Shown: positions 6,118-62,913 of the stretch, piece after piece
Numbering within the stretch: the stretch's first letter is position 1
Layout: each line of letters opens with the position of its first letter
Assembly (NCBI GenBank): GCA_048213135.1
Contig: PS015071.1
Coordinates: forward strand, 124,555 to 188,554
Length of the DNA stretch: 64,000 nucleotides
Reading direction: 5' to 3'
From: Reclinomonas americana ATCC 50394
Taxonomy: Eukaryota
Notes under the pieces: generated by a model
Databases searched by the model: none
Seen by the model: the letters and a program-made list of their open reading frames with translations, nothing else
Told to the model about the DNA's origin: nothing
Translations under genes and position numbers: made by a program

Positions 6118-6157
<40 letters not shown>

Positions 6158-7684: not shown

Positions 7685-7764
<80 letters not shown>

Positions 7765-31641: not shown

Positions 31642-31814
31642 GTGTGTGTGTGCAAACGACCAGACACATGTCGCATCGGCACATCATCACGATCATCATC
31701 ACACCGACTCATTCATTGTGGATGCGCCTCCCATATTCACACCACCCTCCTTCTCCATCAAAACAACAAAGCAGAACGATAACCAACAACAAAATAGAGG
31801 CCGCGATATTGGGA

Positions 31815-39399: not shown

Positions 39400-41306
39400 N
39401 NNNNNNNNNNNNNNNNNNNTAAGTCTATCTGTCTGTCCTCCCGTCTGCCCTGTGCCGTTTCTCCCTTGCTCTCTATGTATGTGACAGAGTGAGGCTGTTT
39501 CTGTCTGGCTGTCTCTCTCTCCCTCTTTTTCTCTCGCCCTCTCCCTCTCCCTCTCCCTCTCCCTCTCCTCCTCTCTCCCCCTCCCTTCCCCACCCCCTCT
39601 CCTCTCCTCCCTCATTCCGCGCCTTCTCACTTGCTGTGCGTTACCTGCTGTAGCCCGCCCGCGCCCACCTTGCTCGACGTGGAACTGGGTGACGATGATG
39701 GCAATCGTTTCCTCTCACTGCGCGTCGATGTCGATGGTCGCATGCGCTGTGCAGCGCATCGTGTGGGCGGCAAGCAAGCCGCCGACGACCAAGATGACAC
39801 GCTGGTGGTCACTCACCATTCCGCATATGTTGTGGGCGAGGTTTGGCGATCATCCTCTCATTTATTTTGTGTTTGTGTGTGTGCGCTGTTTCTGACGTCG
39901 CCTCGTTGCAGTGGAAGCACATTGCCGTGACTCTCTCGAGGCAGTCGCTGGCGCTTTACGTCAATGGCCAGCTGGTGCCTGGACAGGGCGACCGATACGT
40001 GCAAGAGTTGCGTCTCTGCCAGATTTTCCTTATTGTTTGTCGCTTCTTACCTCTCACACCCGCCGCAGTCCGCAGCAGCTAAACATCTTCTCTGAGCTGG
40101 TGCGGTCACGTGAGCCGAAGCTGGCCTTCGCTTCCGGTCTCGCGGATGTGCTCTTGTGCGAAATCCGGGTGTGGAACATGGCTCGTTCGTTTGCCGCGAT
40201 TCAGGACTACTTCAACTGCGCCTTGCGCGCGTGCCACCAAAAGGCCAACGATGTGGTGTCGGCGGTGGCCGATTCTCTGGTTCTGTGGTTCGAGTTCAAC
40301 ACCAACCTGGCGCCGCGCTATCTCGAGTCGGCCTCGTCACGTGGTCACGTGTTTGAAGTGCTTGGAGAGTCGTCGTCGCTTGTGACGAAGACCACGCTCA
40401 TGCAGCAGGAGCGAACGGACCCGCAGTTGGATGTTGCTGCGGCCCGGCGACTCTACGATGCGTTTGGTGAGATACGCACGTCACTCATCTTTCTCTTGTT
40501 GTATCCACGCGACATGTCTCTGCTCTCTCATTGCCTTCCCCGCCGCGTCACCACTCACATCCCTCCTTCTCCGCTTCACCGCAGTTCCTGGCCCTGTTCC
40601 ACTTCTCAGCATTCGCGCCGTGCAAGATGGCTTTGCTGTGGTAAGCGTTGTGTTTTGCGCCGCAGTGCCATGTGTCATTGTTATTCTCACACTCGTCTTG
40701 TTTTCTGTCTCTGCAGCGGTGGATGCCATACGAGTTCAACGTCCCCATCACCAGCTACCTCATCATGTACGAGGAAAAGGACAAGGTGGACTCGGATCCC
40801 GGCCACGAGTACTTGCCAAAGAAGGATGCCACCCATGTGGCGCGAGCGGATCTGGCCTGTGACGAGTGGAACGAGGCCGGTGAAGGCGCTTCAGCCAGCG
40901 TGCTGCTGCGACAGCAGCAGGAGCCCGTGGAGTACACGGCACGCGGGTTGCGACCGGACACCGACTACCTGGTGTGGGTGGCCGCAGCGCAGACCACACG
41001 GTATGGGCCGTGCTCGGCGCCTGCATCGGTGTGCACACTGCAGTCGTCGTCGTCGACTACAACTACCCGGTCCCACGCACCGCAACAGCAGCAAGCGAGG
41101 GGGCCACGGCCACCGCCTCCGAGCTACGAAGACTCACTCTCTCTGTTGCGTATATTTTTGGTGCTTTGTTCTCGCGTCATCTGCGATGGCTGTCTGACGT
41201 TGCGTTTGTGGGTAGTATACCGGCTCGCGTCGGGCGGGACGGAGAGGATGCAAATGGAACTGTGCAGCCAGCTGCCAGGCCGCCACCGTCGTACTCCGAG
41301 GTGTGA
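34935..41306 (+). CDS. Multi-pass membrane protein with Cys-rich loop, LamG/ConA-like domain, FN3 domain and two PPxY motifs (one contig apparently inverted)
   Basis: N-terminal [21 protein letters not shown]; Cys-rich exons; many hydrophobic helices at 37355-38650; LamG-like [22 protein letters not shown] and [14 protein letters not shown]3 [10 protein letters not shown]...[18 protein letters not shown]; tail PPPPSYED and PPPSYSEV*. Exons at 36252-37025 read on the minus strand between two gaps. Confidence 0.7.
39200..39399. repeat. (TCTG)n microsatellite, intronic
   Basis: Near-perfect tetranucleotide run ending at a gap. Confidence 0.95.
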
Positions 41307-42459
41307 GGCAGAAGACGCTGTGATGAGCTCAGTGTAAATTTGAGAAAAAAGTGGTGTTGAAGAGACAACACAACACGGCTGCGTGGTAATTATCATCATC
41401 ATTATGAGTGAGCACTAGAAATGGAGGCATCATTGAGACAGAACGAGAATGCAAACAACAACAACTAAGCCTACCACACCATGCCGCAGCGATATGAGCC
41501 TCGCCAGCAACATGACATGCTCACTTTTGTAGTATACCTGTGCCACAGTTTATTCACCAATTACAACAACACGCAATATCTGTTTTGATGAGCAAGTCTA
41601 CAAACAACACAACAATTCATCACCAACAAACAAGCAACAGCTGTCTTGATGACCATGTCCAACCGTTCGCAATAATCAACAACACAAACACCAATCCTGA
41701 GGCTGCTGATGAATTCAGCACCGAGCACCAAACTTCCTAGGACCCGGCTTTGCTTTGTTTGCCTGGCTCTGGCCTTTTCCCAAATTGCATGTGCCGTATA
41801 CAGTCACAGACAACTCTATACGTCTCTCCTGACTACGTTTGGAGAGAGTTCCGTATTTGAGCTTGCTCCACACTTATCAGTCTCGACAACCAATTGTAGT
41901 GTCCTCTACTGCCACCACCAGTCCACCACTGAACAGCACCGTCACTAACGTGGCACTCTCTACTCGATTCAACACCGACAACTCCAAACAGCGATGCACC
42001 CCAACCACAACCGACTATAGTTTGACTTTATTTTACATGCCTTCGCTTAGATCGGGCAAGCATTGTGACCAGCAAAACCCTCCCTCGAGCGTGTGTGCGG
42101 CCCGCTGGTCACGATCCTGGCTCCCGCCTGAGTGCTCACCGCTGGAGCGTCTGTATGCAAGTGCGTCAAGTCCACTGTTCAACCACGCTTCATACTGTGA
42201 AGATCACACTTCTTGATATCGATCTTTGTTTCGACCTCGACTTGTTCGGATCTCCGAGAGCGAACACACGCACGCAAGGAACCAGCTGCGCTCTGCCTCA
42301 AGACTGGCGTTTGTGTTGATGTTTTGGGATATGGCCGGACTTGGTCATCACAGCTCCTGTTGATTTTTTGTTGGCGAGGTTTCATGCATCCAACGAACGC
42401 TGCGAATTCCCGCGCATTTTTTTGTTCACGTGGTTTGCATTTTCCCCCCGTGCGCAACA

Positions 42460-45400
42460 ATGCGTCGTCACGCGCTCCCTCTCCTCTTTCTCTCTCTTCT
42501 CTGCATTGCTTGTGTCGCCCATGTGGCTTACGGTGAGTGACTTGCACACCCAATATGAAGAGAACACCGCGCGCAGAGCTCTGTGCGATCGTTTTTGTAT
42601 GTTCAGAATGGCATCCATCACACACACACACACACGCATCACTCCGCTTTGTTGTCGTGGCGCACGTCTTCGTCCTTCGCATCGTGCGTGTGCAGCGTGG
42701 CAGCCTTGAGAGAGGGTGGCCATGGGCGCGAAAAACTTTCTCCACATGTCCGCCCCACGCACTGCACTCTCTCAGTTTCTTAGTCTCGTGCGTTCACGGT
42801 TTTGACACACTCGTGCGTGCCACAGTGAGAGCGCAGAACGAGAGAGAGAGAGAGAAATGAGAAAAATTATGCGCATGCGGAGTTATAAGCGAAAAATGGT
42901 GCATCCGTGTGTGTGCGCGTGTGCGTGCGTGTGTGTGTTTGTGTGTGTGCGTGTGTTGTGTGCGTGTGTGCGTGTGTGCGCGAGGGAAGCGGTGTATGTG
43001 AGTGCGCGCGGGGTTGTTTCACGCACTTGATTCATGTTCNNNNNNNNNNNNNNNNNNNNCTCTCTGCTCTTTGTCTCTCGCTGCGCACGCTCTTGCACGC
43101 GCAGCATATTCCTTCTCCTTCGTACTCTCTCTCTCTCTCTCTCTCTCACGAATATGCTCAAATCGAGCCACCCCTCTTCCCAAGCCCTCTCGCCCTCTCC
43201 CACACCCTACTCCCTCTCTCTGCCTCCCTCTTTCCCGCTCTCCCCTCTGCCTGTCCCTCTCCCTCTCCCTTTTTATTCATGCACCTCACACCATCCGGCC
43301 TTCCTTCTCCACAGCTTCGTCGGCAACCACAAACGCTGCCACTTCAATCTCCACTCAGGCGGCGACGCTCCACGCCTCGATTGACAACACGTCGGCGTCG
43401 GCGAGCAACAACTACTTTGAGCTGGCCGTCGTCAGTGGGGATTTCTCGACGGCGTCGGCGGTCAGCACGTTTGCTGGCAGCTACAATACCAGCGGTTTCA
43501 AGAACGATGACCGCTTGCATGCGATGTTCAATGGCCCACTTGTTGAGTAGCTGATCGCATGATTTACCATGCAACATGCTATGTATGAGTTGTTTTCCGA
43601 TCTTGATCTCATGTCTTTTCATTTGTTAGGGAATGACAACGGATGCACGCGGCAATCTGTATGTCGCCGACTACCTGTTGCGTTGATGCCTGCATGCATT
43701 GCCGTGATGACGAAGACCCGATTTGACTCTGGTATGTGCTTCCGTGCAGCAATCAATGCATTCGATTTGTCGACATTCACTCGGGAGATGTGTCGACGTA
43801 CACTGGCGGATGTGGCCAGACGCACGACTACGTGAACGGGGGGCCGTCTGTTGCTCGATTCTACAAGTCGCGTTGAATGACTCTTTGTGTGTGGGGACTT
43901 TCCTCTCTAGTTACGAGCGAGATGCTGACACGAAACTACGAAACACAGTCCTGTGGGATTGGATATGGATCGGCAGACGACGACGCTGTATGTTGGTGAT
44001 GTGCGTCACTCACAGTGAGGCATGAATGCTGGATATGTGTGCTATCTATTTTTCTCTGGGCTTGTGAGAGCGGTGCCTACTGTTGTGTTGCACTATGGAT
44101 GATTCTCTGGTTGCGTTGATCCTGCCTGAGATTGCCATTCCATTGTGTTTGTTGTGCTTTTGTGAGTGCATGTTCGGCAGTGTGTCTGAAGACTGTGTGA
44201 TCAATTCATCATCTGTTTCCTCTTTTTCTCTCATAATCATTTGCACGCTCCCACTATTTTCCGCTGCATTCTTTTTTCTTGTATTCTTGTTCTTCTTCTT
44301 CATCTGGTCTTGTTAGATCATTTGGTCCCTACCCATCTTTTCTATACCTTGCCCTTGTAGTGTGACTTTATAGTTGTTCTATACTCCTTTACCCTTGACC
44401 CCTTACCCTTGCTCCGTCGAGAAACCCGTCACCCGGTCACCAGGGGCCGTTCTTGTTGTGACCGTCAATGAGGAAATCTGGGAAGGGAACAAAAGTTCCA
44501 ACAGTCTTATGCCTACTCCTCCTCCTCCTCCTCGTACTCTCTCCTCCTTCTTCTATTCTTCCTCCGTCCGCGTTCTCCCTGCTGATCGCTTCCACCACAC
44601 AGGCCGACAACCATGCCGTACGTAAAGTGACCTCTGATCGAACGACTTCAACTTTGGTGGACAACAGCACCAACTTGAATGGCTCGCCTCCAATCGACAG
44701 CGCTTTCAATGTCGCGTACGATTCTTCGTCGCAGTACGTGTACTTTAGCTCGTTCAACACGCACACCATTCGGTACGTGAAGTCGCGCATCAACTGTGTT
44801 TGCACTCTGACTCATTAGTTGGCGCACACAGTCGCATCAAGAGCGACGGGACTGGCGCGATTGTGTTCTGCGGACAGCACAATGCGAGCGGGGCCGTCGA
44901 TGGCGACTGCGGAACGACGGCTACATTCAATCAGTCGTCTTCCTTCGCGGTCGATCAGGCACGCAATATGCTGTATGTCGGCTCTGATACCGACAGGGTT
45001 GTTCGACAAATCAATCTGACCACGAACCAAGTGACGACGATTGCGGGCACTGGGGCGCCTGGATCTGATGACGGGGCTGCGCTCAGTGCGACTTTCCAGT
45101 CGACAATCAGTGTGGTTCTGGATATCACACGCGATGTGTTGTACGTTGCCGAGCGCGACCGTGGCAGGGTCCGCCAGCTCGACCTGTCGAGCATGAGTGT
45201 GTCCACTCTTGTCCAAGGGCCAGCAGGTAGTATTAACGGGCCGCTGGCAAGTGCGCGATTCAACTATGCGGTGAGGATCTTGCTTCTCTGCTGCGCTATT
45301 GTTTCTCTGAGTCCAAAGGAATGGACTGACACGCTACTCTGTGTACAGTTTGGCATTGTTGTGAACGGTAATCGGTTGTACATCACCGGTGAGTCAGAAA

Positions 45401-46801
45401 ATGAGCAGAGGAGAGGGCTCGTGAACTGCTGGAGGTATTGAGCATCTTACACGTGGGATTGTTGGTACAGACTTTACCGCGAGTGTGGTCCATCTCATCA
45501 AGTTGCAACCATCAACTGCTCGGATCACGGCATCGCCGAGCACGACTGGGGCCGGCTCTTCCGCCTCGGTGTCGAAAGCTGTCGCGCAGCTCAACAGCGG
45601 AGCGACGTACTACTTCCGTGCGGTGACTGTGCTGTCCGACTCGACAGTGCTTACCGGATCGACACTGTCCTTCACGAGTGCGTCTGCGCGTGTGTATAAT
45701 ATTTGTGATTGATGGACTGCGATGCCTGACACATGCCGTGGTGTGGAATGCAGCAACTGGCGCACTGACGACAGGATTCTCGCCGACGTCGATTGCAGCG
45801 ACGACGAGCAATGTGCAGATTGTGGTGACTGGTGTGAACTTGTTGGCGAGCGATGTGGTGCAGGTGGAGTCGGGGGCAACGTGCAGCGGCAGTGGGACGG
45901 GGCTGACACACGTGTCGGTGTCGAGTGATGCTACAATCAAAACAGTCAAGACGCCGAGCCCGTCGACGGCACTGACGAATGGATTGTACTCTGTGTGGTG
46001 CGTGGCTGTTTGAGGAAGAGAGAGAGAGAGAGAGTGAGAGGTAAGGAGATAGGAAAGGGTAGAAGGAGCAGATGAAGATGGAGGAGGAGGAGAGAGAGGG
46101 CGAGAGAGGGAGAGAGAGAAAGAGGAGGAGGTGGAGAAGGAGAGAATCGTGGAACTCGGTGCGCTGTCTGACGTTTTTTTGTTGTTGATGTCACTGTTTT
46201 TTTTGCTGTTGTGCGTGTTCAGTTACTTGTACGGAGGCGTGGGAACGGCAGAGCGTGTCGGAACGACGTCGCTTGTTGTCGGGAATGGTTTGTTGGGTTG
46301 GTGGAGGCAGTTTGCCTGTTGTCGCTTGTCGATGATTGAATCTCTCTCTCTCTCTCCTCCATCTCGTGGATGCGACAGCTGCACTTGCGACGAGCAGCGG
46401 GGCGACAGCCGTGTCTACGTACTCAGCTACGGTGAATGGGTCGATCACGAACAACTCTGGTGCGACGAGCAGCAATTATTTCGAGTTGGCGCGATCGAGC
46501 AGTGATTTCACGACAGCGTCGTCGGTGACGACGTATGCTGGTACGCTGGGCACTCCTGGAACGACCAATGGACCACTTGCGAGTGCGCTGTTCAATGATC
46601 CGCGAGTTATGTCTCTGATGTTTCATATGTTTTGCAACCGATCACGAATGATGCTTCTCCTGACACTTGATTTTCGTGATGTGTTTGCACTGCAGGGCAT
46701 TGTTGGCGACTCTGAAGGCAACTTGTACCTTGTGGAAGCAGTGTTGCGTGCTTGTGCTGCGTCTTGCGCTGATGAGCAGGCGATAAGTTGTCGCTGAATC
46801 A

Positions 46802-46834
<33 letters not shown>

Positions 46835-47153
46835 GCTCTCTCTCTCTTCTTCCTTAATGTGTGCCATTGCTCTTGCGCAGCAACAACTGCATTCGGTTCA
46901 TCGATGTGTCGTCGGGCATGGTGTCGACATTTGCTGGTGTATGTGGAGCAACTGGAGCGTTGGTAGATGGTGTGGCGACTACGGCGCGGTTTAACGGGTT
47001 CGTGTGGTTTTGCGTTTCTGAAATTGTGGTCACTTTTGAGGTCGTGTATCTGACAATTCGTCGATAATGTTTTGTGCGCGTGTACAGTCCACGAGGCCTC
47101 GCCATTGATCTGGAGTCGAGCACGCTGTTTGTTGCTGACGTGCGTAAGATTAT

Positions 47154-47200
<47 letters not shown>

Positions 47201-47757
47201 GTCGTCTCNNNNNNNNNNNNNNNNNNNNNNNNNNNNNNNNNNNNNNNNNNNNNNNNNNNNNNNNNNNNNNNNNNNNNNNNNNNNNNNNNNNNNNNNNNNN
47301 NNNNNNNNNNNNNNNNNNNNNNNNNNNNNNNNNNNNNNNNNNNNNNNNNNNNNNNNNNNNNNNNNNNNNNNNNNNNNNNNNNNNNNNNNNNNNNNNNNNN
47401 NNNNNNNNNNNNNNNNNNNNNNNNNNNNNNNNNNNNNNNNNNNNNNNNNNNNNNNNNNNNNNNNNNNNNNNNNNNNNNNNNNNNNNNNNNNNNNNNNNNN
47501 NNNNNNNNNNNNNNNNNNNNNNNNNNNNNNNNNNNNNNNNNNNNNNNNNNNNNNNNNNNNNNNNNNNNNNNNNNNNNNNNNNNNNNNNNNNNNNNNNNNN
47601 NNNNNNNNNNNNNNNNNNNNNNNNNNNNNNNNNNNNNNNNNNNNNNNNNTTACGTTACCGTTACGGTACGGTACGGTACCGACGTTGTAGTCGTCGTACG
47701 GTACGGTACGGTACGTCGACGTCGTTGTTGTCGTGTACGTAGTCGTACGTAGTATAA

Positions 47758-47797
<40 letters not shown>

Positions 47798-50700
47798 TCT
47801 CTCTCTCCCTCTCTCTCTCTGCGCACCCTTCGTTCCCGTCTTGAACATCTTCCCGTGACTCTGTATTCTATCGCTTCATTCCGTTTTCATCCCCTTCGTT
47901 GCTGTATATTCGCTTCTGCTTGGCTGTTGGGTATTGATCTTCTGCGTCTCTGCGTGCTCACCCACTTGCCGTCGTAGTCGTCAAACAACGCCATTCGTCG
48001 CGTATCGTCGACTGGGTACACGACATCATTGGTCACGAGCAGCAGTGCGACACCGGCTCCGGACTTTATCTACAGTGTGGCGTATGACGCAGGCAACCAG
48101 CTGCTTTACTTTTCCGAGTTGAACCGGCATACTGTAAGGTGAGGTGGCACGCAGCATGTGGAGTGTGTGAGAAGGAATGTGGAGCGTGTGCTTTGTATTT
48201 GGAGAGATTGCCTAGATCAGTGTTTGCAGTTGCTACGTATGTGTTGCTCTTCCGCTTCCCGATGCATGTCTCTGACGCGGTAATCGGAGTTTGAACGTAT
48301 TTGCTCATATCTGTATGTTTCCTCTTTTTCTAGGCGTGTGAACGCCGACGGCTCGTCCATTACACTGTTGTGTGGTCAATACGGCACTTTTGGTTCCGTC
48401 GACGGCGACTGCTCTACTACAACTCCAAAATTCATCAGCCCCGCCGGGCTGGCGTTGGATTTATCCGCCAACAAGCTGTATGTGGCTTGTGCTAGTACCC
48501 CTAAGGTTAGGCAGCTGGACTTGGCGGCGAGTCCGATGCAGCTTGGCACTCTTGTCGGTCAAGACTCCCAGGGGTACACTGTGGGCCCCACTGCGTCTGC
48601 GCTGTTTGTCGCCCTACGTGCGCTGTATCTGGACGGGGTGCGACGGATTCTGTACATTGCTGACGCTTCAGTGGGCGTCAAGCAACTGGATCTCAACAGC
48701 ATGGTCGTGTCGGCTCTCACGGTGCCTGCACTGGGTGTGTCGTCTGTGGATGGGCCGTTGACGGATGCCGTTGTAGCCTTCCCGGTGCGTGAGTATCACG
48801 GCAGCGTAGCTGGAAGTTTGATGAGATCGTTGCTTGCACTCGTATATATGTGTACTTCCCATGAATGTGTGTTGTGTGTATATCTGTGTGTGACTTTGTA
48901 CATTGATGGAACACGTATCTTGTTGTCGTTCGATGTTGTGTGAGAAACCAGTCACTATGTCAACAAAGTAGCATGGGATTTAGAGGAGTGGATGTACAAC
49001 ATCATACACTTTGCTGTTGCACAACGCGTGTCTGAGGCCTGCATCTCCTTTACAGTTCGGCATGTATTTGGCGCAAGGCAATCAACTCTATGTGACTGGT
49101 GAGTTGCAGAATTCCTTTTGCGCGCTTGGCTGATTGACGGCGACTGTCCCGCTCACTGTCATTTGTGTTCGTCAGAGTTTTTCAATGGTCCCGGATTGGG
49201 GAACACGATCCGCTTGATTACGCTGCAGCCTGGAGAGTGCCGCATCACTGCCGGTCCATCAACTACTGCCTCTGGATCGACAGCCAGCATCAGTGATGCG
49301 CTGTCGCAGCTGACGCCTGGATCGGCCAACTATTTCCGTGCGGTGACTGTGCTGTCGGATTCGACTGTGGTGGCTGGATCGACACTGTCGTTCACGACAA
49401 GTTGCGTTGGTGAAGCGAGTGGTTCCCTTTGCGCAGCTCGTGTTGATGTACGCTTTTCCTTTCGCCCCATCTCAGATGTGGCGCCATCGGCGACGAGCTT
49501 TTCGCCGAGCAGCATTACTGCGGAGACGAGTGGCGTGCAGATTGTTGTGACGGGCACTGCGTTGTTGACGTCCGATGTGGTGCAAGTGGAACTGGGAGCG
49601 GACTGCACTGGCGGCGGCACAGCACTGTCGTCGGTATCAGTGAGTGGTGGTGGAACGACGAAGACGGTGCAGACGAGTGGCGTGTCGCTGGCAGTGGGAT
49701 CGTTCGCTGTGTGGTGCGTTTTGTGACGAAGAGAGTACGAGAGAGAGAGGAGAAAGTGAGAGAGTGAGAGAAACAGGGGAGAACAGAGTGGGAGAGAGAA
49801 AGAGGGAGAGAGAGAGAGAGGAGGAGAAGAAGAGAGAAGGAGAGTACGAGAATGCGGAGGAGGGATGAGGAGGGCTACAAAGCATGAGATGTCNNNNNNN
49901 NNNNNNNNNNNNNNNNNNNNNNNNNNNNNNNNNNNNNNNNNNNNNNNNNNNNNNNNNNNNNNNNNNNNNNNNNNNNNNNNNNNNNNNNNNNNNNNNNNNN
50001 NNNNNNNNNNNNNNNNNNNNNNNNNNNNNNNNNNNNNNNNNNNNNNNNNNNNNNNNNNNNNNNNNNNNNNNNNNNNNNNNNNNNNNNNNNNNNNNNNNNN
50101 NNNNNNNNNNNNNTCAGAGTGCAAACACAGTTGATGCGCGACTTCACGTACCGAATGGTGTGCGTGTTGTACGAGCTGAAGTACACGAATTGCGACGAAG
50201 AATCGTAGGCGACACTGAAAGCACTGTTGAGCGCAGGCGACCCATTCAAGTTGGTGCTGTTGTCCACCAATGTTGAAGTCGTCCGATCAGAGGTCACTTT
50301 GCGAACGGCGTTGTTGTCGGCCTGTGTAGTGGAAATGAGGAGTGATGAGAACGTGGATGGAAAAAGTAACGAAGGAAACGAGGAAGACAGAGGAGGTAGA
50401 CGGAGGAGGAGGCGGAGGGAGGCGAGAAAATGGAGCAGAAGACCAGGAGAAGTCAAGAACAAGAACAAGAACAAGATAGAGAACAATAAGACGAAGAAAA
50501 CAAGAAAAAAAGCAGCAGACAAGTGTGAAAGAGTGTGAATGAGAGAGAGAGAGAGAGAAAGAGGAAACAGATGATGAATTGATCACACAGTCTTCAGCCC
50601 TCGTGACCTCTTATCAGCACAATGAACAGGCAATATCACGCACAATAAAGACAACGAGAAAATCATCCACCAAGCAACACGACATCAGGCACCACACTTC

Positions 50701-51677
50701 GACATAGCCAGAGGAATAGCAGATGGCACACACACACAGCACACACGCCTCACTGTGAGGAACGCACATCACCAACATAGAGAGTCGTTGTCTGCCGATC
50801 CATGTCCAAACCCACGGGACTGTGATTCGTAACATCCGTGAGAAATATTCATGGTTGGGGAAGCCCCGCGCGCACACAACAGCCATTCAACACAACTTGT
50901 AGAATCGAGCAACAGACGGCCCTCCATTCACATAGGCGTGCGTCTGGCCACATCCGCCAGTGTATGTCGACACATCTCCCGAGTGAATGTCGACGAATCG
51001 GATGCACTGATTGCTGCACACCCGCACATACACCGAAGTTAATACACATGGCACCACAACAGCAGTGTCGCACACAGACATCAACGCAACGTGTAGTCTG
51101 AGATATACAGATTGCCACGTGCATCCGAAGTCATTCCCTACTCACACACAACACAACACACACACATGTGTGTGAGCAATTCAATGCCAAATAACAGCGA
51201 CAAACTTAGCCACTGACACTCACCCACGGCTGATTAAATATCGCATGCAGTCGATCGTCGTTCTTGAAGCCGTGTGTGCCAAAACTGCCAGCAAACGTGC
51301 TGACCACCGACACCGTCGAGAAATCCCCGCTGTCGACGGCCAGCTCAAAGTAGTTGTTGCTCGCCGACGCAGAAACGTTGGTGACCAGACCNNNNNNNNN
51401 NNNNNNNNNNNCGGTTCATTGATGTGTCGTCGGGCATGGTGTCGACATTTGCTGGTGTATGTGGAGCAACTGGAGCATTGGTAGATGGTGTGGCGACTAC
51501 GGCGCGGTTTAACGGGTTCGTGTGGCTTTGTGTTTCTGAAATTGTGGTCACTTTTGAGGTCGTGTATCTGACTTGCCATCGATAATTTTGTGCGCGTGTG
51601 CAGTCCACGAGGCCTTGCCATTGATCTGGAGTCAAGCACGCTGTTTGTTGCTGATGTGCATAAGATCGCGGGCTTTG

Positions 51678-51718
<41 letters not shown>

Positions 51719-54700
51719 TCCTTCTGCATACATACACATTTAGATTAGCGATGTGCACCATTCGATCTTGTCTCGCCATCCTCCTGTAGCCTTGCATTGT
51801 GTCCCTTTTGACTCGAGATCCCCGTTGCTACTGCATTTTTTCACCTCTACTTATCTGTTGGACCTTTGCCGTCTGCGTCTCTGTGAACTCACCCATCGTT
51901 TGAACACAGACCGGAAGCAATGCCATTCGACGAGTGTCGTCGACTGGGTACACGAGAACACTGGTCACGAGCAGCAGTGCGACGCCGGCTCCAGATTTCA
52001 TCTACGCTGTGGTGTACGACGCGGGTAACGAGGTGTTGTACTTCTCCGAGAATAACAAGCATACTGTAAGGTGAGTTGCGCAGGAAGTGAATAGTAGAAC
52101 ATTAGATAGTGAAAGGGAGTGGAGCATGCGTTCTTGTGTTGGAGCGTGCGTGTTCCTTGAGCAACATTTGCAGTCGTCTATGTTTAAGATGCTCTTCTGC
52201 TTCTCCGTGCGTGTCGTTGATACGTCAGTCGGAGATGAGATGGGTCAACTCATTGCTTCCACTTTGCTGTATGTTTGTGCCAGGCGTGTGAACGCAGACG
52301 GCTCGTCCATCACTCTGCTGTGTGGTCAATACGGTACTGCTGGTGGCGCCGACGGTAACTGCTCAACCACCACACCAACATTCAACCAACCCGCCGGGCT
52401 CGCTCTCGACATGTCAGTCAACAAGCTGTACGTGGGGTCACTAAGTGGTCGTAAGGTTCGGCAGCTGGACTTGGCGGCCAGTCCAATGCAGCTTGGCACT
52501 CTTGTCGGCCAAGACACTCAAGGGTACGCTGTGGGTCCCGCTGCATCTGCCAAGTTTTTGGATCCACGCACGCTGTACCTGGATGAAGTGCGACGGACTC
52601 TGTACATTTCTGATCTGGGATATGGAATTAAGCAATTGGATCTCAACAGCATGGTCGTGTCAGCTCTCACTGTGCCTGCACTGGGTGTGTCGTCAGTGGA
52701 TGGGCTGTTGACAGATGCGGTTTTGCCGTTACCGGTGCGTGCAAATTGTGTGTGTGCGTTTGCAGAAGAGAGAGTTTGACACACAGAGAGAGGGAGGGAC
52801 AACGCTTTTGCGTCTGTGCAACTCCTGAGTGCCATGCAGTGTGTCGCACTGTGTGTTACTGATGTTCTTCTCTTTTACAGTTTGGCATGTACTTGGCGCA
52901 AGGCAATCGACTTTATGTGACCGGTTAGTTTGAGATTCGGTTTCTGCTGATAGCCATTGTCCCGCTCACTGTGATTCTTTGTATTAGAGTTTTCTGGTAC
53001 TCCTGGAGCTGGTAACATCATTCGATTGATCACGCTGCAGCCTGGAGAGTGCCGAATCACTGCCGGTCCATCGACAAGTGCGTCTGGAACAACCGCCAGC
53101 ATTAGTGACGGCCTGTCGCAGCTGACGCCTGGATCGGCCAACTATTTCCGTGCGGTGACTGTGCTGTCGGACTCGACTGTGGTGGCTGGATCGACGCTGT
53201 CGTTCACGACGAGTTGCGTTGGCGGAGTGGGTGGTTCCCTTTGCATAACTGTTGTTGACTTTGCTCTCGTCCCGCGTCGTGATTAGATGTGGCGCCATCG
53301 GCGACGAGCTTTTCGCCGAGCAGCATTACTGCAGAGACGAGTGGCGTGCAGATTGTTGTGACGGGCACTGCGTTGGTGACGTCGGATGTAGTGCAAGTGG
53401 AACTGGGAGCGGACTGCACTGGCGCGGGTACAGCGCTGTCGTCGGTGTCTGTGAGTGGGGATGGAACGACGAAGACTGTGCAGACGAGTGGCGTGTCACT
53501 GGCAGTGGGATTGTATGCGGTGTGGTGCGTTTGTGATGGGGAGAAGCAAGAGAGAGTGAGAGAGAGAGAGGAGAAAATTCAGGGAGGCGGAGAGGGATGC
53601 GAAAAGTCGATACATGAGATTTAGTGCGTTGTTTGCGTGTTTTATTAAGAAAATGAGGGAGGCGATGAGGAGGAAAGAGGTGAGTGTTGTTAGAGGATGT
53701 AGTTGTTGTGTTGGGTGTTTGCATTGACGAGTAGCTGGCGTCAATAGATAGACAGTGTGGAGCAAGATGAAAGAGGGGGAGTTGGAGTATGGCATCNNNN
53801 NNNNNNNNNNNNNNNNNNNNNNNNNNNNNNNNNNNNNNNNNNNNNNNNNNNNNNNNNNNNNNNNNNNNNNNNNNNNNNNNNNNNNNNNNNNNNNNNNNNN
53901 NNNNNNNNNNNNNNNNNNNNNNNNNNNNNNNNNNNNNNNNNNNNNNNNNNNNNNNNNNNNNNNNNNNNNNNNNNNNNNNNNNNNNNNNNNNNNNNNNNNN
54001 NNNNNNNNNNNNNNNNNNNNNNNNNNNNNNNNNNNNNNNNNNNNNNNNNNNNNNNNNNNNNNNNNNNNNNNNNNNNNNNNNNNNNNNNNNNNNNNNNNNN
54101 NNNNNNNNNNNNNNNNNNNNNNNNNNNNNNNNNNNNNNNNNNNNNNNNNNNNNNNNNNNNNNNNNNNNNNNNNNNNNNNNNNNNNNNNNNNNNNNNNNNN
54201 NNNNNNNNNNNNNNNNNNNNNNNNNNNNNNNNNNNNNNNNNNNNNNNNNNNNNNNNNNNNNNNNNNNNNNNNNNNNNNNNNNNNNNNNNNNNNNNNNNNN
54301 NNNNNNNNNNNNNNNNNNNNNNNNNNNNNNNNNNNNNNNNNNNNNNNNNNNNNNNNNNNNNNNNNNNNNNNNNNNNNNNNNNNNNNNNNNNNNNNNNNNN
54401 NNNNNNNNNNNNNNNNNNNNNNNNNNNNNNNNNNNNNNNNNNNNNNNNNNNNNNNNNNNNNNNNNAGAGAGACTGCACTCTCTATAAAACACACGAAGGT
54501 TAACACACCAACAGTCAGCGTCCCCGGCACAGTGCTCCACAGTCCCGTTCCTCCAAACTGGATGCTGTGGAGATCGAAGAAGTCAGTTTCGTATCAAATC
54601 CGCTCNNNNNNNNNNNNNNNNNNNNNNNNNNNNNNNNNNNNNNNNNNNNNNNNNNNNNNNNNNNNNNNNNNNNNNNNNNNNNNNNNNNNNNNNNNNNNNN

Positions 54701-55821
54701 NNNNNNNNNNNNNNNNNNNNNNNNNNNNNNNNNNNNNNNNNNNNNNNNNNNNNNNNNNNNNNNNNNNNNNNNNNCTCTCTCTCTCTCTCCATGTATGTGC
54801 ATGTGAATGTTCATGCTAATTGTGGTGTGTGTGTGTGTGTGTGCGTGTACAGTGGCTTCGGCGGAGTCGTTTTCTCCATCATCGATTACACCCAACACGG
54901 CCGGGCAGACGGTGACGGTGACTGGGCGAGCATTGTCAGCAAGTGATACTGTGCGATTGGTGTCTGGTGGTACGTGCGCGAGTGGCACGACGACGTACAA
55001 CATGACGAGTGGAGCAGTGGGTGGTACGGCTGGGGCGCGCACGCTGACCGTGTCGACGGGTAACACCAGTTTAGCGGCCGGATCGTATCTTGTGTGGTTC
55101 GTCTCTGCATTCAGTGTGCGACTCTCCTTGTGCACTGTTTGTATGACATCCTCGTGTTTGTGTTTGCAGTTACTTGTACGGCGGAACGGGCACGCCGGTA
55201 CAAGTTGGCAGCACGTCATTGACCGTTGCAATAGGTGTGTTCTCTGCTTATAACCTTGCATCCATGTCTCTATTTTTCTCACTCTCTCCTTTGGCAACAG
55301 GAACAAGCGTGACGAGCTTTACGCCGAGCAGCATCACTGCGGAGACGAGTGGAGTGCATGTGACTGTGAGTGGCAGTGGTCTGGCGGATGCGGATGTGGT
55401 GCAAGTGCAGAATGCGGGATCGTGTACGGGTGCTGGCACCGTGCTGTCTCTCGTTTCGACGGCTGCCGATGGACTGACCACGATTCGGCAAACCACGGGC
55501 ACGTCGCTTGCGGCGGGATCGTACTGGGTGTGGTGCGTGTGTTTGTGTCGTTCGGATTGGAAGACATGCATGTGTGCAACGAGCGAAGAAGCGTTCGTGC
55601 TTTAGCAAGCAAGCAAGAGAGTTAGAGAGAGAGAGGGAGAAGAAGATCTACGAACGAGATCGCGTGTCTTGATTTCGTCTTGAGCTGATCACACTGGCGT
55701 GTGCTTTCTCTCCAGCATTCACTTTGCGAGCGCGGGTGCGGGTGTCTGGCAGCAAGTACCAGGCGTACTGACAGTAGGTGCGTGTCTGTGTGGCATGTGT
55801 TGAACAGAGAACTGTCACCCT

Positions 55822-55859
<38 letters not shown>

Positions 55860-58094
55860 GTGTGTGTGTATGTGTGCGTGTGTATGTGTGTGTATATGTG
55901 TGTGTTGTGTGTGTGTTTTTTTCGTAACGAGTTGACCTCATGCTGATTGTGATGTGTGATGTGCAGTGGCGTCGGCGGAGTCGTTTTCTCCGTCGACGAT
56001 TACACCCAACACGGCTGGCCAGACGGTGACAGTGACTGGGCGAGCATTGTCAGCAAGTGATGCTGTGCGATTGGTGTCTGGTGGCACCTGCGTGAGCGGC
56101 ACGACGACGTACAACATGACGAGCGGAGCAGTGGGTGGGTCGGCTGGAGCTCGCACGCTGACCGTGTCGACGGGTAACACCAGTTTAGCGGCCGGATCGT
56201 ATCTTGTGTGGTTCGTTTCTGCGTTCACTTTTTGTTTCTCCTCGTGCACTGCTTGTGTGACATTCTGTTATTGCCGTGTAGTTATCTGTACGGCGGAACG
56301 GGCACGCCAGTGCAAGTTGGCAGCACGTTGCTTCTCGTTAGCAACGGTAAGTTTATTTTCATGATATTATCCTCATCACACATGACTATTGACTGTCGTA
56401 TTCTCGATCGTATCAGCGTCGTCGGCGACGACAAGCGCCGCGTCAGCAGTGTCTTCGCTCTCTGCGACACTGAATNNNNNNNNNNNNNNNNNNNNNNNNN
56501 NNNNNNNNNNNNNNNNNNNNNNNNNNNNNNNNNNNNNNNNNNNNNNNNNNNNNNNNNNNNNNNNNNNNNNNNNNNNNNNNNNNNNNNNNNNNNNNNNNNN
56601 NNNNNNNNNNNNNNNNNNNNNNNNNNNNNNNNNNNNNNNNNNNNNNNNNNNNNNNNNNNNNNNNNNNNNNNCTCATTAGTTGGCGCACACAGTCGCATCA
56701 AGAGCGACGGGACTGGCGCTATTGTGTTCTGCGGACAACACACGACGGGTGGCACTACCGATGGCGACTGCGGAACGACGGCTACATTCAATCAGCCATC
56801 TTCGATTGCTGTTGATCAGGCACGCAATATGCTGTACGTTGGCTCTGGCATCAGTATGATAATTCGACAAATCAATCTGACCACGAACCAAGTGACGACG
56901 ATTGCGGGCACTGGGGCTGCTGGATCAGATGACGGAGCTGCGCTCAGTGCGACTTTCCAGTCGACATTCGGCGTGGTTCTGGATGCAACGCGCGACGTGC
57001 TGTACGTTGCCGAAGGCGGCCATGGTAGTATTCGTCAACTCGATCTTTCGAGCATGAGTGTGTCCACTGTCATTCATGGGCCTGGCACTGTGAACGGTCC
57101 ACTGGCGAGTGCGCGGTTCCAGTATACGGTTTGCATTTCCTTCATTGATTTCGTTGGTGATTCCAACGCAACGAACTGAGGCGCAACTCTTGTGTGCAGT
57201 TTGGCGTTGTCGTCAACGGTAATCGGTTGTACGCCACCGGTGAGTCGAAGAAGAAAAAGGGAGGTCCTGTGAATTGTCGGGCGGATAGAGCATCTTACAT
57301 GGCGTTGTGGGTTCAGGTCTTGCTGAGTGTGTGATCCATCTCATCAAGTTGCAACCATCAACTGCACGGATCACGGCATCGCCGAGCACGACCGGGGCCG
57401 GCTCTTCCGCGTCGATATCCAAGGCTGTCGCGCAGCTCAACAGTGGCGCGACGTACTACTTCCGTGCCGTGACTGTGCTGTCCGACTCGACGGTGCTTAC
57501 CGGATCGACACTGTCCTTCACGAGTGCGTCTGCGCGTGTGTATGATATTTGTGATTGATGGCCTGGAATGCCTGATACATGTCGTGATGTGGTATGCAGC
57601 AACTGGCGCATTGACGACAGGATTCTCGCCGACGTCGATTGCAGCGACGACGAGCAATGTGCAGATTGTGGTGACGGGTGTGAACTTGTTGGCGAGCGAT
57701 GTGGTGCAAGTGGAGTCGGGGGCAACGTGCAGCGGCAGTGGGACGGCGCTGACACACGTGTCGGTGTCGAGTGATGGGACGACGAAAACTGTGCAGACGC
57801 CGAGTCCGTCGACGGCACTGACGAATGGATTGTACTCTGTGTGGTGCGTTGATGTCATGGAGAAAGGGAGAGGAGAGGAGAGGAGAGGAGAGGAGAGGAG
57901 AGGAGAGGAGAGGAGAGGAGAGGAGAGGAGAGGAGAGGAGAGGAGAGGAGAGGAGAGGAGAGGAGAGAGTGGAAGAGAGGCTGACGGACATACTGCATGA
58001 GCGCAGACGAGAAGACATGAGCGAGAAAGGTAATGGGGAGAGAGTGAGACAGATAATGATACACATACACATATACGAGTATGTGTGTGTGTGT

Positions 58095-58153
<59 letters not shown>

Positions 58154-58250
58154 TAGTAGCGAGAGAGATTTTTTGCATGTGAGTGAGAAGATAAGTGGTA
58201 AGGGAAATTGTCGTTGAGCGAGTGCACGATGCCATGTCCTTGGTCTCACT

Positions 58251-58338
<88 letters not shown>

Positions 58339-58728
58339 CGTTTGTTGCTGCTGCGTATGTCCAGCTACTTGTATGGAGGCTCGGGTACGGCGGAGCGTGT
58401 CGGAACGACATCGCTTGTAGTTGGTAATGGTTTGTGGAGCGTGCTGGACGCAGTTTGCATGTAATCGCATGTCAATGACGGAATCTATCTATCTCTCTCA
58501 CTCTCTCTCTCTCTCTCTCTCTGCTCGTACGACCGAGGCGATGTACGGTACAGACAGAATGTACGTTCGGAGTCGCGTACGGTGGACTAATTCGTCGTCG
58601 TAGACGTACGTCGNNNNNNNNNNNNNNNNNNNNTTAGGTTTGGTTTGGTACGGTCGGTCGTCGGTACGGACGACGTTAGTTCGTACTAGTAATACGTCAC
58701 TGTCGTAATAGTACGGAACGTACTACTA

Positions 58729-58794
<66 letters not shown>

Positions 58795-61474
58795 GCCCGT
58801 CCTCTCGTGGGCGCAACAGCTGCACTTGCGACGAGCAGCGCGGCGACTGCTGTGGCGACATTTACGGCGACTGTGAACGGGTCGATCACGAACAACTCGG
58901 GTGCGGCGAGTAGCAACTATTTCGAGTTGGCACGATCGAGCAGCGACTTCACGACAGTATCGTCTGTGACAACGTATGCTGGTACCCTGAACACTCCTGG
59001 AACAACCAATGGTCCACGAGCGAGTGCGTTGTTCAATGATCCGCGAGTTTCGTCACTGTGCCGTTCATCATTGCATGTGTCTTGTCACCGTCGGAAATGT
59101 TATTTCTCCTGACGGTTGTGATTTACCGTGATGTGATGCAATTGCAGTCCATTGTTGGCGACTCGGATGGCAATTTGTTTATTGTGGAAGCAGGGTTGCG
59201 TGCTTGTGCTGATTTTTTTTGTATTTTACAGGCCGGCGATCTCACTGAAACATACCATCTCTTTTCCCTCGCATCGTGTGTCTTTACTCTCGCGCAGCAA
59301 CAACTGCATCCGACACATTGACGTTTCGTCGGGCATGGTGTCGACATTTGCTGGTGTTTGTGGAGCTACTGGTGCGTTTGTCGATGGTGCGGCGACTACG
59401 GCGCGGTTCAACGGGTGTGTGTATGGTTTTGTGGATTTGAGAATATTTTTTCGAGGATGCATGCCTGACATGGTGGACGATCATATTCGTTTTGTGTATG
59501 CAGCCCGCGAGGCCTTGCCATTGATCTCGTGTCGAGCACATTGTTTGTTGCTGATGTGCGTGATTAGGGTCGCGCGATTTCTGTTTTCTCTCTCTCTCTC
59601 TGCACGATTTAGATCCCCTGTTCCTGTATTGCCGCCTTCCTGTGGCTTTGCACTCCGTTGCTTTGTGTTGTTGTTACTTGGGTCCCCTTTGTTTGTTCGG
59701 TTTTGTTCAGCTCTGCTTGACTGTGAGATGTTGGGCATCTCTGTCTCTCTGATCTCACTTATCCTCTGAGGCAGTCGGCAAATAATGCCATTCGACGGGT
59801 GTCTTCGACTGGTTTCACGACGGCGTTGATCACTAGCAGCAGCGCCACGCCGGCTCCAGATTTTATCTACAGTGTGGTGTACGACGCGGGCAACCAGGTG
59901 TTGTACTTCTCCGAATTCAACAAGAATACTGTGCGGTGAGTGGCGCGCAGCAAGCAGATATGTTGCAACAGAGCAATGGGATGTGTGAAGGAAGGTAGAG
60001 CGTGTGAGTCAGAAAGAGTTGCTTGATAAGTGTCAGCAGTTGTCATTTATTGCGGCTTTCGTGAATGTGGTACCATTCCCTCTCATCAGCGTTTGTCGCT
60101 GATGCGACAGTCGGAGATGGAATGCGTCGACTCATGCCTGTGTATTTGTGTCTTTGTCACAGGCGTGCGAATGCCGATGGTTCGTCGATCACACTGCTGT
60201 GTGGTCAATACGGTACTTCTGGTGTCGCCGATGGCGACTGCTCTACCGCCACACCAACGTTCATCAACCCCGGCGGGCTAGCATTGGATTTTTCAGCCAA
60301 CAAGCTGTACGTGGCATCGACAAGTAACCACAATGTTCGTCAGCTGGACTTGGCGGCCACGCCGATGCAGCTCGGCACTCTTGTGGGCCAGATTGCCCCT
60401 GGATATTCCGTGGGTCCCACTGCAACTGCCCAGTTCCTCGATCCACGCACTCTGTATCTGGACCAAGTGCGACGGATCCTGTACATCGCAGACGCTTCAG
60501 TCGGCATCAAGCAACTGGATCTCAACAGCATGGTCGTATCAGCTATTACAGTGCCTTCGCTGAGTGTACCTTCTGTGGATGGGTCGTTGACGGAGGCTGT
60601 TGTTGAGGCACCGGTGCGTTGACATCTCATGAGCGTGGCAGAATTGGGCAGAAAATTATAGTGGGTTGTGTGTGTGTTTGTTTGTGTGTGTGTGTTTGTT
60701 TGTTTGTGTGTTTGTGTGTATGTGTATGTGTGTGTGTGTGTGTGTGTTTGTCAACGTTACGTGTGCGTGTAACTGATATGTGCGCACGTGTATCTGTACT
60801 GCAGTTTGGCGTGTACTTGGCACAAGGCAACCAGCTTTATGTGACTGGTGAGTCGACGATTCGATTTTCTGTTGATTGCGACTGTGCTGCTCACGGTGTT
60901 TCTTTCTATCATCAGAGTTTGTCAACGGTCCCGGTTTTGGTAACACGATTCGGTTGATTACGCTGCAACCTGGAGAGTGCCGAATCACTGCCGGTCCTTC
61001 GACGAGTGCGTCTGGAACAACCGCCAGCATCAGTGATGCACTGTCGCAGCTGACGCCTGGATCGGCCAACTATTTCCGTGCGGTGACTGTGCTGTCGGAC
61101 TCGACTGTGGTGGCTGGATCGACGCTGTCATTCACGACGAGTTTCGTTGGCGGAATGTGTGGTTCCCTTTGCGCAGCTCTTGTTGATGTACGCTTTTCCT
61201 TTCGTCCCATCTCAGATGTGGCGCCATCGGCGACGAGCTTCTCGCCGAGCAGCATTACTGCGGAGACGAGTGGCGCACAGATTGTTGTGACGGGCGCTGC
61301 GTTGCAGGCATCAGATGTAGTGCAAGTGGAACTGGGAGCGGACTGCACTGGCGGCGGCACAGCGCTGTCGTCGGTATCAGTGAGTGGTGGTGGAACGACG
61401 AAGACTGTGCAGACGAGTGGCGTGTCACTGGCAGTGGGATCGTATGCAGTATGGTGCGTTTGTGATGGAGAAAA

Positions 61475-61522
<48 letters not shown>

Positions 61523-61905
61523 AGAAAATCCACGGAGGCGGAGAGGGATGAGAAGAGTCGATACATGAGATTTAGTGCATTGTGTTTGATGAAGAAGAGG
61601 ATGTGAGAGACGACGAGGAAGAACTAGGTGCCTGTTGTTATTTGACAGGGTGTAGTTGGGTCAATGTATGAACGCTGGGGTGAAGATGAAAGAGGAAGAG
61701 TAGAGTATGGCTTCATCAAGCCGACTTGGTACGAAACTGACTGTTTTTGACCTCCACAGCATCCAGTTTGGAGGAACGGGACTGTGGAGCACTGTGCCGG
61801 GGACGCTGACTGTTGGTGTGTTAACCTTCGTGTGTTTTATAGAGAGTGCAATCTCTCTCTCTCTCTCTCTCTCTCTCATGTATGTGCATGTGAATGTTCA
61901 TGCTA

Positions 61906-61948
<43 letters not shown>

Positions 61949-62913
61949 TGGCTTCGGCGGAGTCGTTTACTCCATCGACGATTACACCGAATACGGCTGG
62001 GCAGACAGTGACGGTAACGGGGCGCGCATTGTCAGCAAGTGATACTGTGCGATTGGTGTCCGGCGGAACGTGCGTGAGTGGCACGACGACGTACAACATG
62101 ACGAGTGGAGCGTTGGGTGGATCGGCTGGAGCGCGTACGCTGACTGTGTCGACGGGCAACACCAGTTTGGCGGCCGGATCGTATCTCGTGTGGTTCGCTC
62201 ACTGCATTCATTTTTGATTCTCCTTGTGCAGTACTTGTGTGTCACCCTCGTGTTTGTGTTTGCAGTTACTTGTACGGCGGAACGGGTACGCCAGTGCAAG
62301 TTGGCAGCACGTCTTTAACCGTTGCAACAGGTGTGTTCTATGTTGTATCACTTTGCATCCATTTTCCCGCTTTTCACTCTCTCCTTTGGCAACAGGAACA
62401 AGCGTGACGAGCTTTACGCCGAGCAGCATCACTGCGGAGACGAGTGGAGTGCATGTGACTGTGAGTGGCAGTGGTCTGGCGGATGCGGATGTGGTGCAAG
62501 TTCAGAGTGCGGGATCGTGTACGGGTGCTGGCACCGTGCTGTCTCTCGTTTCGACGGCTGCCGATGGACTGACCACGATTCGGCAAACGACGAGCACGTC
62601 GCTTGCGGCGGGATCGTACTGGGTGTGGTGCGTGTGTTTGTGTCGTTTGGATTGGAAGACATGCATGTGTGCAACGAGCGAAGAAGCGTTCGTGCTTTAG
62701 CAAGCAAGCAAGAGAGTTAGAGAGAGAGAGAGGGAGAAGAAGATCTACGAACGAGATTGCATGTTTCGTCTTGAACTGATCACACTGGCGTGTGCTTTCT
62801 CTCCAGCATTCACTTTGCGAGCGCGGGTGCGGGTGTCTGGCAGCAAGTACCAGGCGTACTGACAGTAGGTGCGTGTCTGTGTGGCATGTGTTGAACTGAG
62901 AACTGTCACCCTT

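Follow-up and report, generated by a model that had tools for sequence, protein, structure and literature searches.

Split FN3-class domains predicted to enclose six-bladed NHL propellers in a repetitive, intron-rich gene of Reclinomonas americana

The window analysed here is a stretch of 64,000 nt from a draft assembly of the eukaryote Reclinomonas americana ATCC 50394 (GCA_048213135.1, contig PS015071.1, positions 124,555 to 188,554, forward strand), and our subject is the one intron-rich gene, with GT-AG introns, that occupies its plus strand from position 42460 to its end. A signal-peptide exon is followed by seven whole or partial modules of eight exons (types A and B), and the modules are joined by one or four IPT/TIG-like domains into a super-repeat of about 7 kb. 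Each module has a flank of about 45 amino acids (aa) at its start and one of about 60 aa at its end, with an NHL propeller of about 340 aa between the two. The gene continues past the window's end, and its C-terminus, with an anchor or with none, lies outside the window. Its parts are as follows (E1 to E8 are the exons of a module, and the FN3 hidden Markov model, or HMM, is described below):

42460-42532, plus strand: exon 1 of the gene, with the start codon (first ATG of the open reading frame, ORF) and a 24-residue signal-peptide-like N-terminus; GTGAGT donor at 42533, phase 1
43315-43541, 43630-43676, 43750-43866, 43949-44000, 44603-44772, 44832-45270, 45349-45388 and 45471-45677, plus strand: module A1, eight exons from the splice model; predicted FN3 N-half at about 43315-43450, six-bladed NHL propeller, FN3 C-half at about 45512-45677; FN3 HMM N-part 43311-43481, C-part 45536-45679
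45754-45997 and 46223-46287, plus strand: IPT-like spacer after A1, two exons, joined in frame to B1
46379-46605, 46696-46742, 46881-46997, 47088-47139, 47978-48138, 48334-48784, 49056-49098 and 49176-49400, plus strand: module B1, eight exons from exon mapping; N gap 47209-47649 within intron 4; FN3 HMM N-part 46375-46542, C-part 49262-49402
49476-49719, plus strand: IPT-like spacer core after B1
50152-51391, minus strand: mis-oriented A-type exons E5, E4, E3, E2 and part of E1, between N gaps
51412-53212, plus strand: module B2, partial, E3 to E8; E1 and E2 lost in a gap or mis-join; FN3 HMM C-part 53077-53214
53287-53530, plus strand: IPT-like spacer core after B2
54858-55103, 55312-55539 and 55972-56217, plus strand: three IPT-like spacer cores; Pfam TIG matches of 19.8 and 16.3 bits (cutoff 20.9)
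56416-56475 (start of E1), 56693-57128, 57200-57239 and 57317-57523 (E6 to E8), plus strand: module A2, partial; N gap 56476-56671 cuts E1
57600-57843 and 58365-58429, plus strand: IPT-like spacer after A2
58820-59046, 59148-59194, 59298-59414, 59504-59555, 59775-59935, 60163-60613, 60805-60847 and 60916-61140, plus strand: module B3, complete and gap-free, eight exons from the splice model
61216-61459, plus strand: IPT-like spacer core after B3
61948-62193, 62407-62634 and 63009-63254, plus strand: three IPT-like spacer cores; Pfam TIG matches of 19.4 and 20.0 bits (cutoff 20.9)
63461-64000, plus strand: module A3, first three exons; FN3 HMM N-part 63460-63624; the gene runs off the window

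The window has about 53% G+C and many microsatellites and N gaps, and its ORFs are fragmented into short pieces. A self-comparison of positions 43000-64000 reveals repeats of two unit types, and translated comparison of one type A with one type B unit gives about ten conserved coding blocks per unit. Enumeration of the GT-AG introns that keep the frame open yields one clean model for the gap-free module B3, in which GTGAGT and GTGCGT are among the donors and the acceptors are pyrimidine-rich CAG sites; its eight module exons plus the IPT exon give a spliced product of 526 aa without a stop. A1 was spliced at the homologous positions and stays in frame through its IPT-like domain into B1, and the reading frame from the ATG at 42460 through 12 exons (1,905 nt) has no stop codon. 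Spliced A1, B1 and B3 are 432-440 aa long (A1 432 aa, B1 440 aa), again with no stops. The donor at 42533 is phase-compatible with the acceptor at 43314 and joins exon 1 in frame to A1; residues 5-21 of the encoded signal-peptide-like N-terminus have a mean Kyte-Doolittle value of 2.3. This exon was overlooked in an earlier note on this DNA, which had been made from the letters alone, and no module peptide matches were found upstream of 43308. The module boundaries given in that note coincide with the independently derived splice sites (A1 43315-45677, B1 46379-49400, B2 end 53212, A2 end 57523, B3 58820-61140, A3 start 63461), its start at "about 56417" corresponds to an N-half match, 56416-56478, whose end reaches the N gap 56476-56671, and the peptides it quoted for the two flanks are present in the plus strand ORFs 43002..43550 and 45425..45712.

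Exon sizes are the same across all copies, and canonical introns lie at identical positions. Type A and type B are 38-58% identical per exon and copies of the same type 75-95%, which agrees with the two alternating types noticed earlier; E1 (the N-flank and the first propeller strands) and E8 (the last propeller strand and the C-flank) are conserved, with five copies of each. Between B1 and B3 the exons are 83.6% identical and the introns 56.5%, and the ratio of nonsynonymous to synonymous substitution rates (Ka/Ks) is 0.146. Because of this ratio, and because the exons are far better conserved than the introns, the array is a functional gene under purifying selection and not debris. One could still argue from the draft state of the assembly, with its eight N gaps from 43040 onward and at least two mis-oriented pieces, that the array is an artefact of assembly, a set of pseudogenes in decay or a contaminant from bacteria. 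We give this idea hardly any credence, since three complete modules are open after splicing, the substitution ratio, exon conservation and shared intron positions just described oppose it, and eukaryotic housekeeping genes lie on the same scaffold.

The larger of the mis-oriented pieces, a contig of about 1.3 kb at 50114-51391 (between N gaps within 49894-51411) that had escaped notice before, holds on its minus strand A-type exons in the order E5 to E1. Since these are E5, E4, E3, E2 and part of E1, the contig belongs to the same gene, and its orientation looks like a scaffolding error (a mis-oriented or collapsed scaffold in the repeat). This contig and the missing first two exons of B2 suggest mis-orientation or collapse, and the true gene is therefore likely to contain modules beyond those that can be seen. 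A second, small mis-oriented fragment is the 139-nt piece between N gaps at 54466-54604, which is an inverted 94% copy of 61719-61858. Introns across the whole gene frequently contain (CT)n and (CA)n microsatellites, and the intron that splits the IPT-like spacer before B3 contains a long trinucleotide repeat of the CAG/GCA type, together with a (CA)n tract, at 58200-58420.

Homology shows the two module flanks to correspond to the N- and C-terminal halves of one predicted FN3-class domain. Of all parts of the module the C-half is conserved best (39 of its 75 columns are invariant across A and B), and a profile made from it finds nine bacterial proteins, several of them named as proteins from metagenome-assembled genomes (MAGs) of the Parcubacteria group. 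In five of these nine that were scanned, Pfam reports Pur_ac_phosph_N PF16656 (5/5) and also fn3 PF00041 (4/5), above cutoff. The N-half profile had no role in the selection of these proteins, and in their tandem FN3 arrays an N-half match lies at most 45 aa before the C-half match in 43 of 55 cases, with a median unit of 99 aa; neither half profile has a match in reversed sequences, in shuffled sequences or in 411,055 residues of NHL arrays. In the reciprocal test, two FN3 proteins found with a profile that contains the N-half show alternating C-half matches. An FN3 HMM of 99 positions, built from the 43 contiguous bacterial units, was then run on the R. americana sequence. On spliced B3 its positions 3-57 align with residues 3-58 and its positions 54-99 with residues 400-445, collinearly and about 340 aa apart. 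Against the whole window (1,390 six-frame ORFs, 112,830 residues) it matches in 10 places only, all on the plus strand and all in E1 and E8 of the modules, in the order N, C, N, C, which is broken only where gaps remove an exon. The FN3 unit here is therefore not one contiguous stretch of about 90-100 residues, since a propeller of about 340 residues stands between HMM positions 57 and 54; the interruption falls between strands C and C'.

For the inserted domain, a profile of exon 6 finds 50,797 proteins at an expectation value (E) of 0.001 or less, and among the best 150 of these, the seven that were scanned with Pfam all give strong NHL or TEN_NHL (PF25021) matches. The spliced module aligns with Pfam-positive NHL arrays at 30-38% identity over 270-370 columns (E down to 8e-36), and by this whole-propeller homology the insert is assigned as an NHL-repeat six-bladed propeller. 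Its six four-stranded blades, closed by an N-terminal strand, are modelled in collinear bacterial homologues, whose AlphaFold2 models have 24 propeller strands, and are placed in the window by alignment, in keeping with the six blades counted in the earlier note. Six-bladed propellers of the NHL and SGL type include lactonases and lyases, and the protein might on that account be a secreted multi-enzyme; bacterial relatives do have Pfam matches to SGL, Vgb_lyase, Arylesterase and Phytase-like families, which share the fold. However, they overlap with NHL matches and fall far short of NHL/TEN_NHL in strength, none is above threshold in the window exons, and a tandem arrangement, with Ig-like spacers and choice-of-anchor domains, is what surface proteins typically have, so we regard an enzymatic array as improbable.

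The same nesting occurs in other proteins. A scan of bacterial and archaeal genomes with an exon 8 profile found three loci, two of which (L001, CALEOR010000535.1, and L002, JBIIAI010000010.1, from Verrucomicrobiales and Akkermansiaceae MAGs) have uninterrupted ORFs of more than 1,700 aa in which the series FN3 HMM N-part, NHL repeats, FN3 HMM C-part occurs twice. In L002 these lie at aa 615-654, 668-984 and 1007-1042, and again at 1160-1201, 1202-1525 and 1537-1578. The window exons align with L001 and L002 at both junctions, and the insertion point is the same within a few residues; residues 12-426 of B3 are collinear with aa 1168-1563 of L002 at 32% identity (E 1.5e-25), within the 28-32% found for the bacterial modules overall. 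The third locus (L003, from a Saccharibacteria MAG) was rejected as a nested case, having only a plain FN3 C-part at the contig end. Choice-of-anchor Q and D domains are present in both ORFs (aa 105-160 and 1074-1174 in L001, aa 129-184 and 1056-1145 in L002), L002 also has Chlamydia-PMP-type repeats near its N-terminal part, and both ORFs extend beyond the 5' end of the loci examined. When the general FN3 HMM was run on 150 NHL arrays, this FN3 subtype was found in 13, mostly as contiguous units between propellers (35 units), and in two arrays, P0024 and P0043, the FN3 domain is split around the propeller, with six N/C pairs. The window-derived half profiles have no match in the same 150 arrays, and the nesting in P0024 and P0043 was revealed only by the general bacterial FN3 HMM. 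Three other searches returned no nested protein: an exon 1 junction profile had six matches among proteins of 140-2000 aa (four with NHL only, two with FN3 only, none with both), a genome scan with that profile had 39 pattern matches and no confirmed one, and a word-based homologue search, with the ORF that holds both exon 8 and the IPT core, found none among proteins of 404-2000 aa. The search for further discontinuous FN3 proteins that the earlier note had proposed has thus produced four, L001, L002, P0024 and P0043, all intron-free.

These four uncharacterised proteins resemble the window gene in their tandem order of FN3 N-part, six-bladed NHL propeller and FN3 C-part and in having Ig-like spacers between modules; they differ in that they have no introns and in that their spacers are HYDIN/VesB-like Ig or choice-of-anchor D domains rather than IPT-like ones. 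Standard annotation sees little of the nesting. On the bacterial nested proteins Pfam reports NHL and at most a C-terminal FN3 fragment, below cutoff (PF16656 positions 45-93 of 93 in L001 and 68-93 of 93 in P0043), and NCBIfam has no model for the nested module and finds choice-of-anchor D/Q domains in the bacterial relatives. In the ESM Atlas a bacterial module falls mostly among NHL-only clusters, and one cluster in which 94% of the members have NHL and 40% fn3 is a lead only.

Structure prediction was carried out on the bacterial homologues, with the alignment deepened by adding the window half-domains as rows; alignments in which window fragments slipped by one blade, or in which the C strand of the N-half was pulled onto the F strand, were discarded. 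The AlphaFold2 model of L001 module 1 (L001:1933-3225) made with the deeper alignment has a mean predicted local distance difference test score (pLDDT) of 88.8 and a predicted template modelling score (pTM) of 0.84. Three strands precede the propeller (A 6-13, B 21-27, C 34-40), the propeller itself contributes 24 strands between residues 49 and 367, and four strands follow it (371-375, 385-390, 400-408 and 414-423; C'-E-F-G), with pLDDT 78-87 in the FN3 halves, and the first propeller strand (49-56) joins the last three to close the last blade. The bacterial module is thus shown to fold in silico in the predicted order A-B-C, propeller, C'-E-F-G. Foldseek matches the models to the NHL propellers of SOQ1, NHLRC2, a bacterial teneurin-like protein, TRIM71 and PknD, with E down to 1e-22 (for example 6gc1, root-mean-square deviation 2.7 over 340 columns). 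The window's own halves, folded as two separate chains, have a median score of 0.60 (best control 0.02); each half has pLDDT 78-85 with its partner and 37-51 with unrelated partners, and the runs agree in at least 90% of contacts.

Several observations weigh against the nested reading for the eukaryotic gene, and three of them (the negative Pfam result for FN3, the first AlphaFold2 model and the rating of the two-chain fold) would favour an alternative in which the flanks are FN3 remnants that do not fold as one sandwich there and serve as linkers or are packed on the propeller. Pfam finds no FN3-class family in the window half-exons at E of 0.1 or less, its best NHL (PF01436) scores on window exons are 18.9 and 15.8 bits (cutoff 20), and in 28 ORF pieces it reports only sub-threshold NHL and TIG plus chance matches. 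When the C-half, N-half and spacer profiles were compared with PDB sequences, the best E values were 0.29, 0.24 and 0.26, which is chance level. The splice model is a prediction from genomic sequence. A first AlphaFold2 model of the bacterial module, from a four-sequence alignment, had a confident propeller but left strands A and B unformed (pLDDT below 50 for residues 1-34). The later, confident fold is that of a bacterial homologue and not of the window's spliced module, and the pairing of the two halves in it is deduced from strand order and confidence, not from coordinates. The two-chain result is rated as weak support: 51 of 78 solved complexes attain the pass mark, as do 2 of 108 mismatches, passes at 0.60 or below account for only five of the 78 solved complexes and for all four of the passing mismatches among 180, and the pass may reflect likeness to, or memory of, solved FN3 folds. 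The spacers too are poorly recognised, with a Pfam TIG (PF01833) match in only four of 11 pieces, all of one subtype and all under the cutoff of 20.9 bits (16.3-20.0), and none in the rest. Remnant flanks are nevertheless unlikely in our judgement, given that the C-half is the best conserved part of the module, that selection on the modules is purifying, that both halves keep the FN3 profile positions collinearly, that the deeper alignment gave both bacterial halves with all 3+4 strands, and that each window half gains confidence with its own partner and not with unrelated ones. The proposal in the earlier note that an NHL propeller sits inside a split FN3 domain is therefore supported by the alternation of half-profile matches, the reverse HMM test, the intron-free bacterial homologues and the 3+4 strand split of the AlphaFold2 model, with the two-chain fold as a weak addition.

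A domain swap, in which the C-half of one module would pair with the N-half of the next to make a permuted sandwich between propellers, is suggested by P0024, where a C-part is followed by the next N-part within 5-8 residues (e.g., 720-749 and 754-801); its sequence by itself can be read either way. In the window gene, however, one or four IPT-like domains stand between a C-half and the N-half that follows it, and the first N-half, directly after the signal peptide, would be left without a partner. A single isolated bacterial module folds with both halves confident, and a link of 5-8 residues could not close a permuted sandwich, because the termini of an FN3 domain lie at opposite poles. Swapping is accordingly very improbable, and we retain the reading in which each propeller is enclosed by the two halves of its own module.

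The spacers between modules are likely, though not established, to be IPT/TIG domains, because one subtype scores just under the Pfam threshold and the ten nearest named clusters in the atlas are all TIG (0.87-0.90; a lead only). Eleven spacer cores align well and have one invariant Cys (11/11). The paired Cys of the earlier description is half sustained: the second Cys is in the conserved VWC(V)/VWF(V) that ends each core (45995-46003 and equivalents), which is largely the splice donor TG|GTGCGT read through and so resembles protein conservation but is partly splice-site conservation, although in the A1 spacer a Cys codon is re-formed across the splice junction. A spacer profile has no matches in the Verrucomicrobial ORFs, the 150 NHL arrays or the nine FN3 proteins.

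Upstream of the gene, the neighbours on the same scaffold are typical nuclear genes, armadillo (Arm)-repeat genes among them. The others are:

5559-10178, plus strand: ubiquitin-activating enzyme E1 (ThiF and UBA_E1_SCCH matches), interrupted by low-complexity insertions
31699-33919, minus strand: Ndc80, kinetochore protein (PF03801, E 1e-36, and PF24487)

Just upstream of the signal-peptide exon, the ORF at 40645-41334 (plus strand) has an ordinary, uninterrupted fn3 match (PF00041, E 1e-5) whose 26.1 bits exceed the cutoff of 25; the ORF probably belongs to a separate upstream gene (39896-41337).

Among known systems, other giant repetitive proteins have the same FN3 subtype (35 full-length HMM matches) and NHL (for example P0055, P0061, P0011, P0089 and P0062). 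In these the FN3 domains are contiguous and lie between the propellers like beads on a string, not nested, alternating with them about every 500 aa; such contiguous arrays may represent a state from which the nested form arose, or else an architecture that is its sister. Teneurins and bacterial teneurin-like proteins (FN-plug, NHL, YD shell) also have an FN-type domain beside a six-bladed NHL propeller, are extracellular and have bacterial ancestry, and a teneurin-type structure (9ifo_A) is the top structural match for model 1 and the fifth for model 2. In published accounts of teneurins, however, the domains are in sequential order, unlike the FN3-N, NHL, FN3-C order of the window gene, and no RHS/YD family was found by Pfam in the 28 ORF pieces. 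Whole domains inserted in a loop of a host domain, with adjacent guest termini, are familiar from integrin beta, where an I-like domain is inserted in an Ig-like hybrid domain, and from prolyl oligopeptidase, where a propeller is inserted in a hydrolase domain; the guest/host pairs differ from the one here. We know of no case of a propeller in the C-C' loop of an FN3 domain. A precedent for an NHL propeller nested in another beta structure is offered by the Tc-toxin B/C subunits YenB/YenC2, in which the NHL domain is inserted in the YD-repeat domain (PMC5851990); there the host is a YD-repeat shell and not an FN3 sandwich, and there is a single copy, not a tandem array. No description of a propeller nested in FN3 was found in full-text literature searches, in Pfam or in NCBIfam, the latter two seeing only NHL and a C-terminal FN3 fragment, so the earlier impression that this is not a described family holds. 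What is new is the nested combination; both kinds of domain are known, and the combination is shared with a few uncharacterised bacterial proteins in which standard annotation misses it.

A quick maximum-likelihood tree was made from 33 propellers, with rows hand-picked from the matches: three window propellers, ten bacterial ones that are nested, ten with contiguous FN3 domains on their flanks and ten that belong to plain arrays. The bacterial nested propellers form one group (SH-like approximate likelihood ratio test 90), and the three window modules form a long-branched group outside it. In an approximately unbiased (AU) test a tree with all nested propellers together is not rejected (p 0.605) and is 2.17 log-likelihood units better. 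That the nesting arose only once, which would entail a transfer between bacteria and this eukaryote, is compatible with these data and plausible. The bacterial ancestry raised in the earlier note thus finds agreement in the common insertion point and the AU test, but not in the free tree, where the window propellers fall outside the bacterial nested group. We tentatively suggest, at somewhat less than even odds, that the module arose once as an unrecognised "propeller-on-a-stalk" surface family that is mis-read as NHL plus an FN3 fragment, and that it crossed between bacteria of the Planctomycetes-Verrucomicrobia-Chlamydiae (PVC) type and a eukaryote by horizontal transfer, gaining introns there and being amplified to a giant secreted multivalent binding protein.

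Taken as a whole, the observations are, quite probably, best explained by a secreted modular protein of nested FN3/NHL modules, with types A and B alternating and with multivalent extracellular binding as its presumed activity. In such a protein an FN3-class beta-sandwich would be interrupted after its third strand (C), the chain would build a complete six-bladed NHL propeller, and it would then return to finish the sandwich with C', E, F and G. The entry and exit of the propeller would be side by side, because its first strand closes its last blade. The C-C' loop lies at the C-terminal pole of the domain in the standard FN3 topology. Modules of types A and B would alternate, strung together by one or four IPT/TIG-like domains, with the FN3 and IPT domains forming a chain from which the propellers hang near the C-terminal pole of each FN3. 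The free faces of the propellers could then serve as repeated binding sites of a multivalent extracellular protein for adhesion or ligand capture. The signal peptide of the window gene and the choice-of-anchor D/Q domains of the bacterial relatives, which are markers of secreted or surface proteins, bear on its location; a role as adhesin or in ligand or prey binding, and the stalk geometry itself, are plausible as inference only.

These findings indicate that nesting, and not only stringing, is a way to combine two extracellular building blocks that are both very common, and that routine annotation misses it. Since Pfam and NCBIfam report NHL and at most half an FN3 domain, giant "NHL-repeat proteins" of bacteria and protists may hide more such modules. 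For protein design and the evolution of folds, the module would be a natural example of an FN3 C-C' beta-hairpin loop that tolerates a guest domain of 340 residues. The insertion point common to the eight-exon eukaryotic modules and the intron-free Verrucomicrobial genes is a rare-change character that could be used to test inter-domain transfer, followed by intron gain and tandem amplification. For R. americana itself, the gene would encode a very large secreted protein that is likely to matter at the cell surface.

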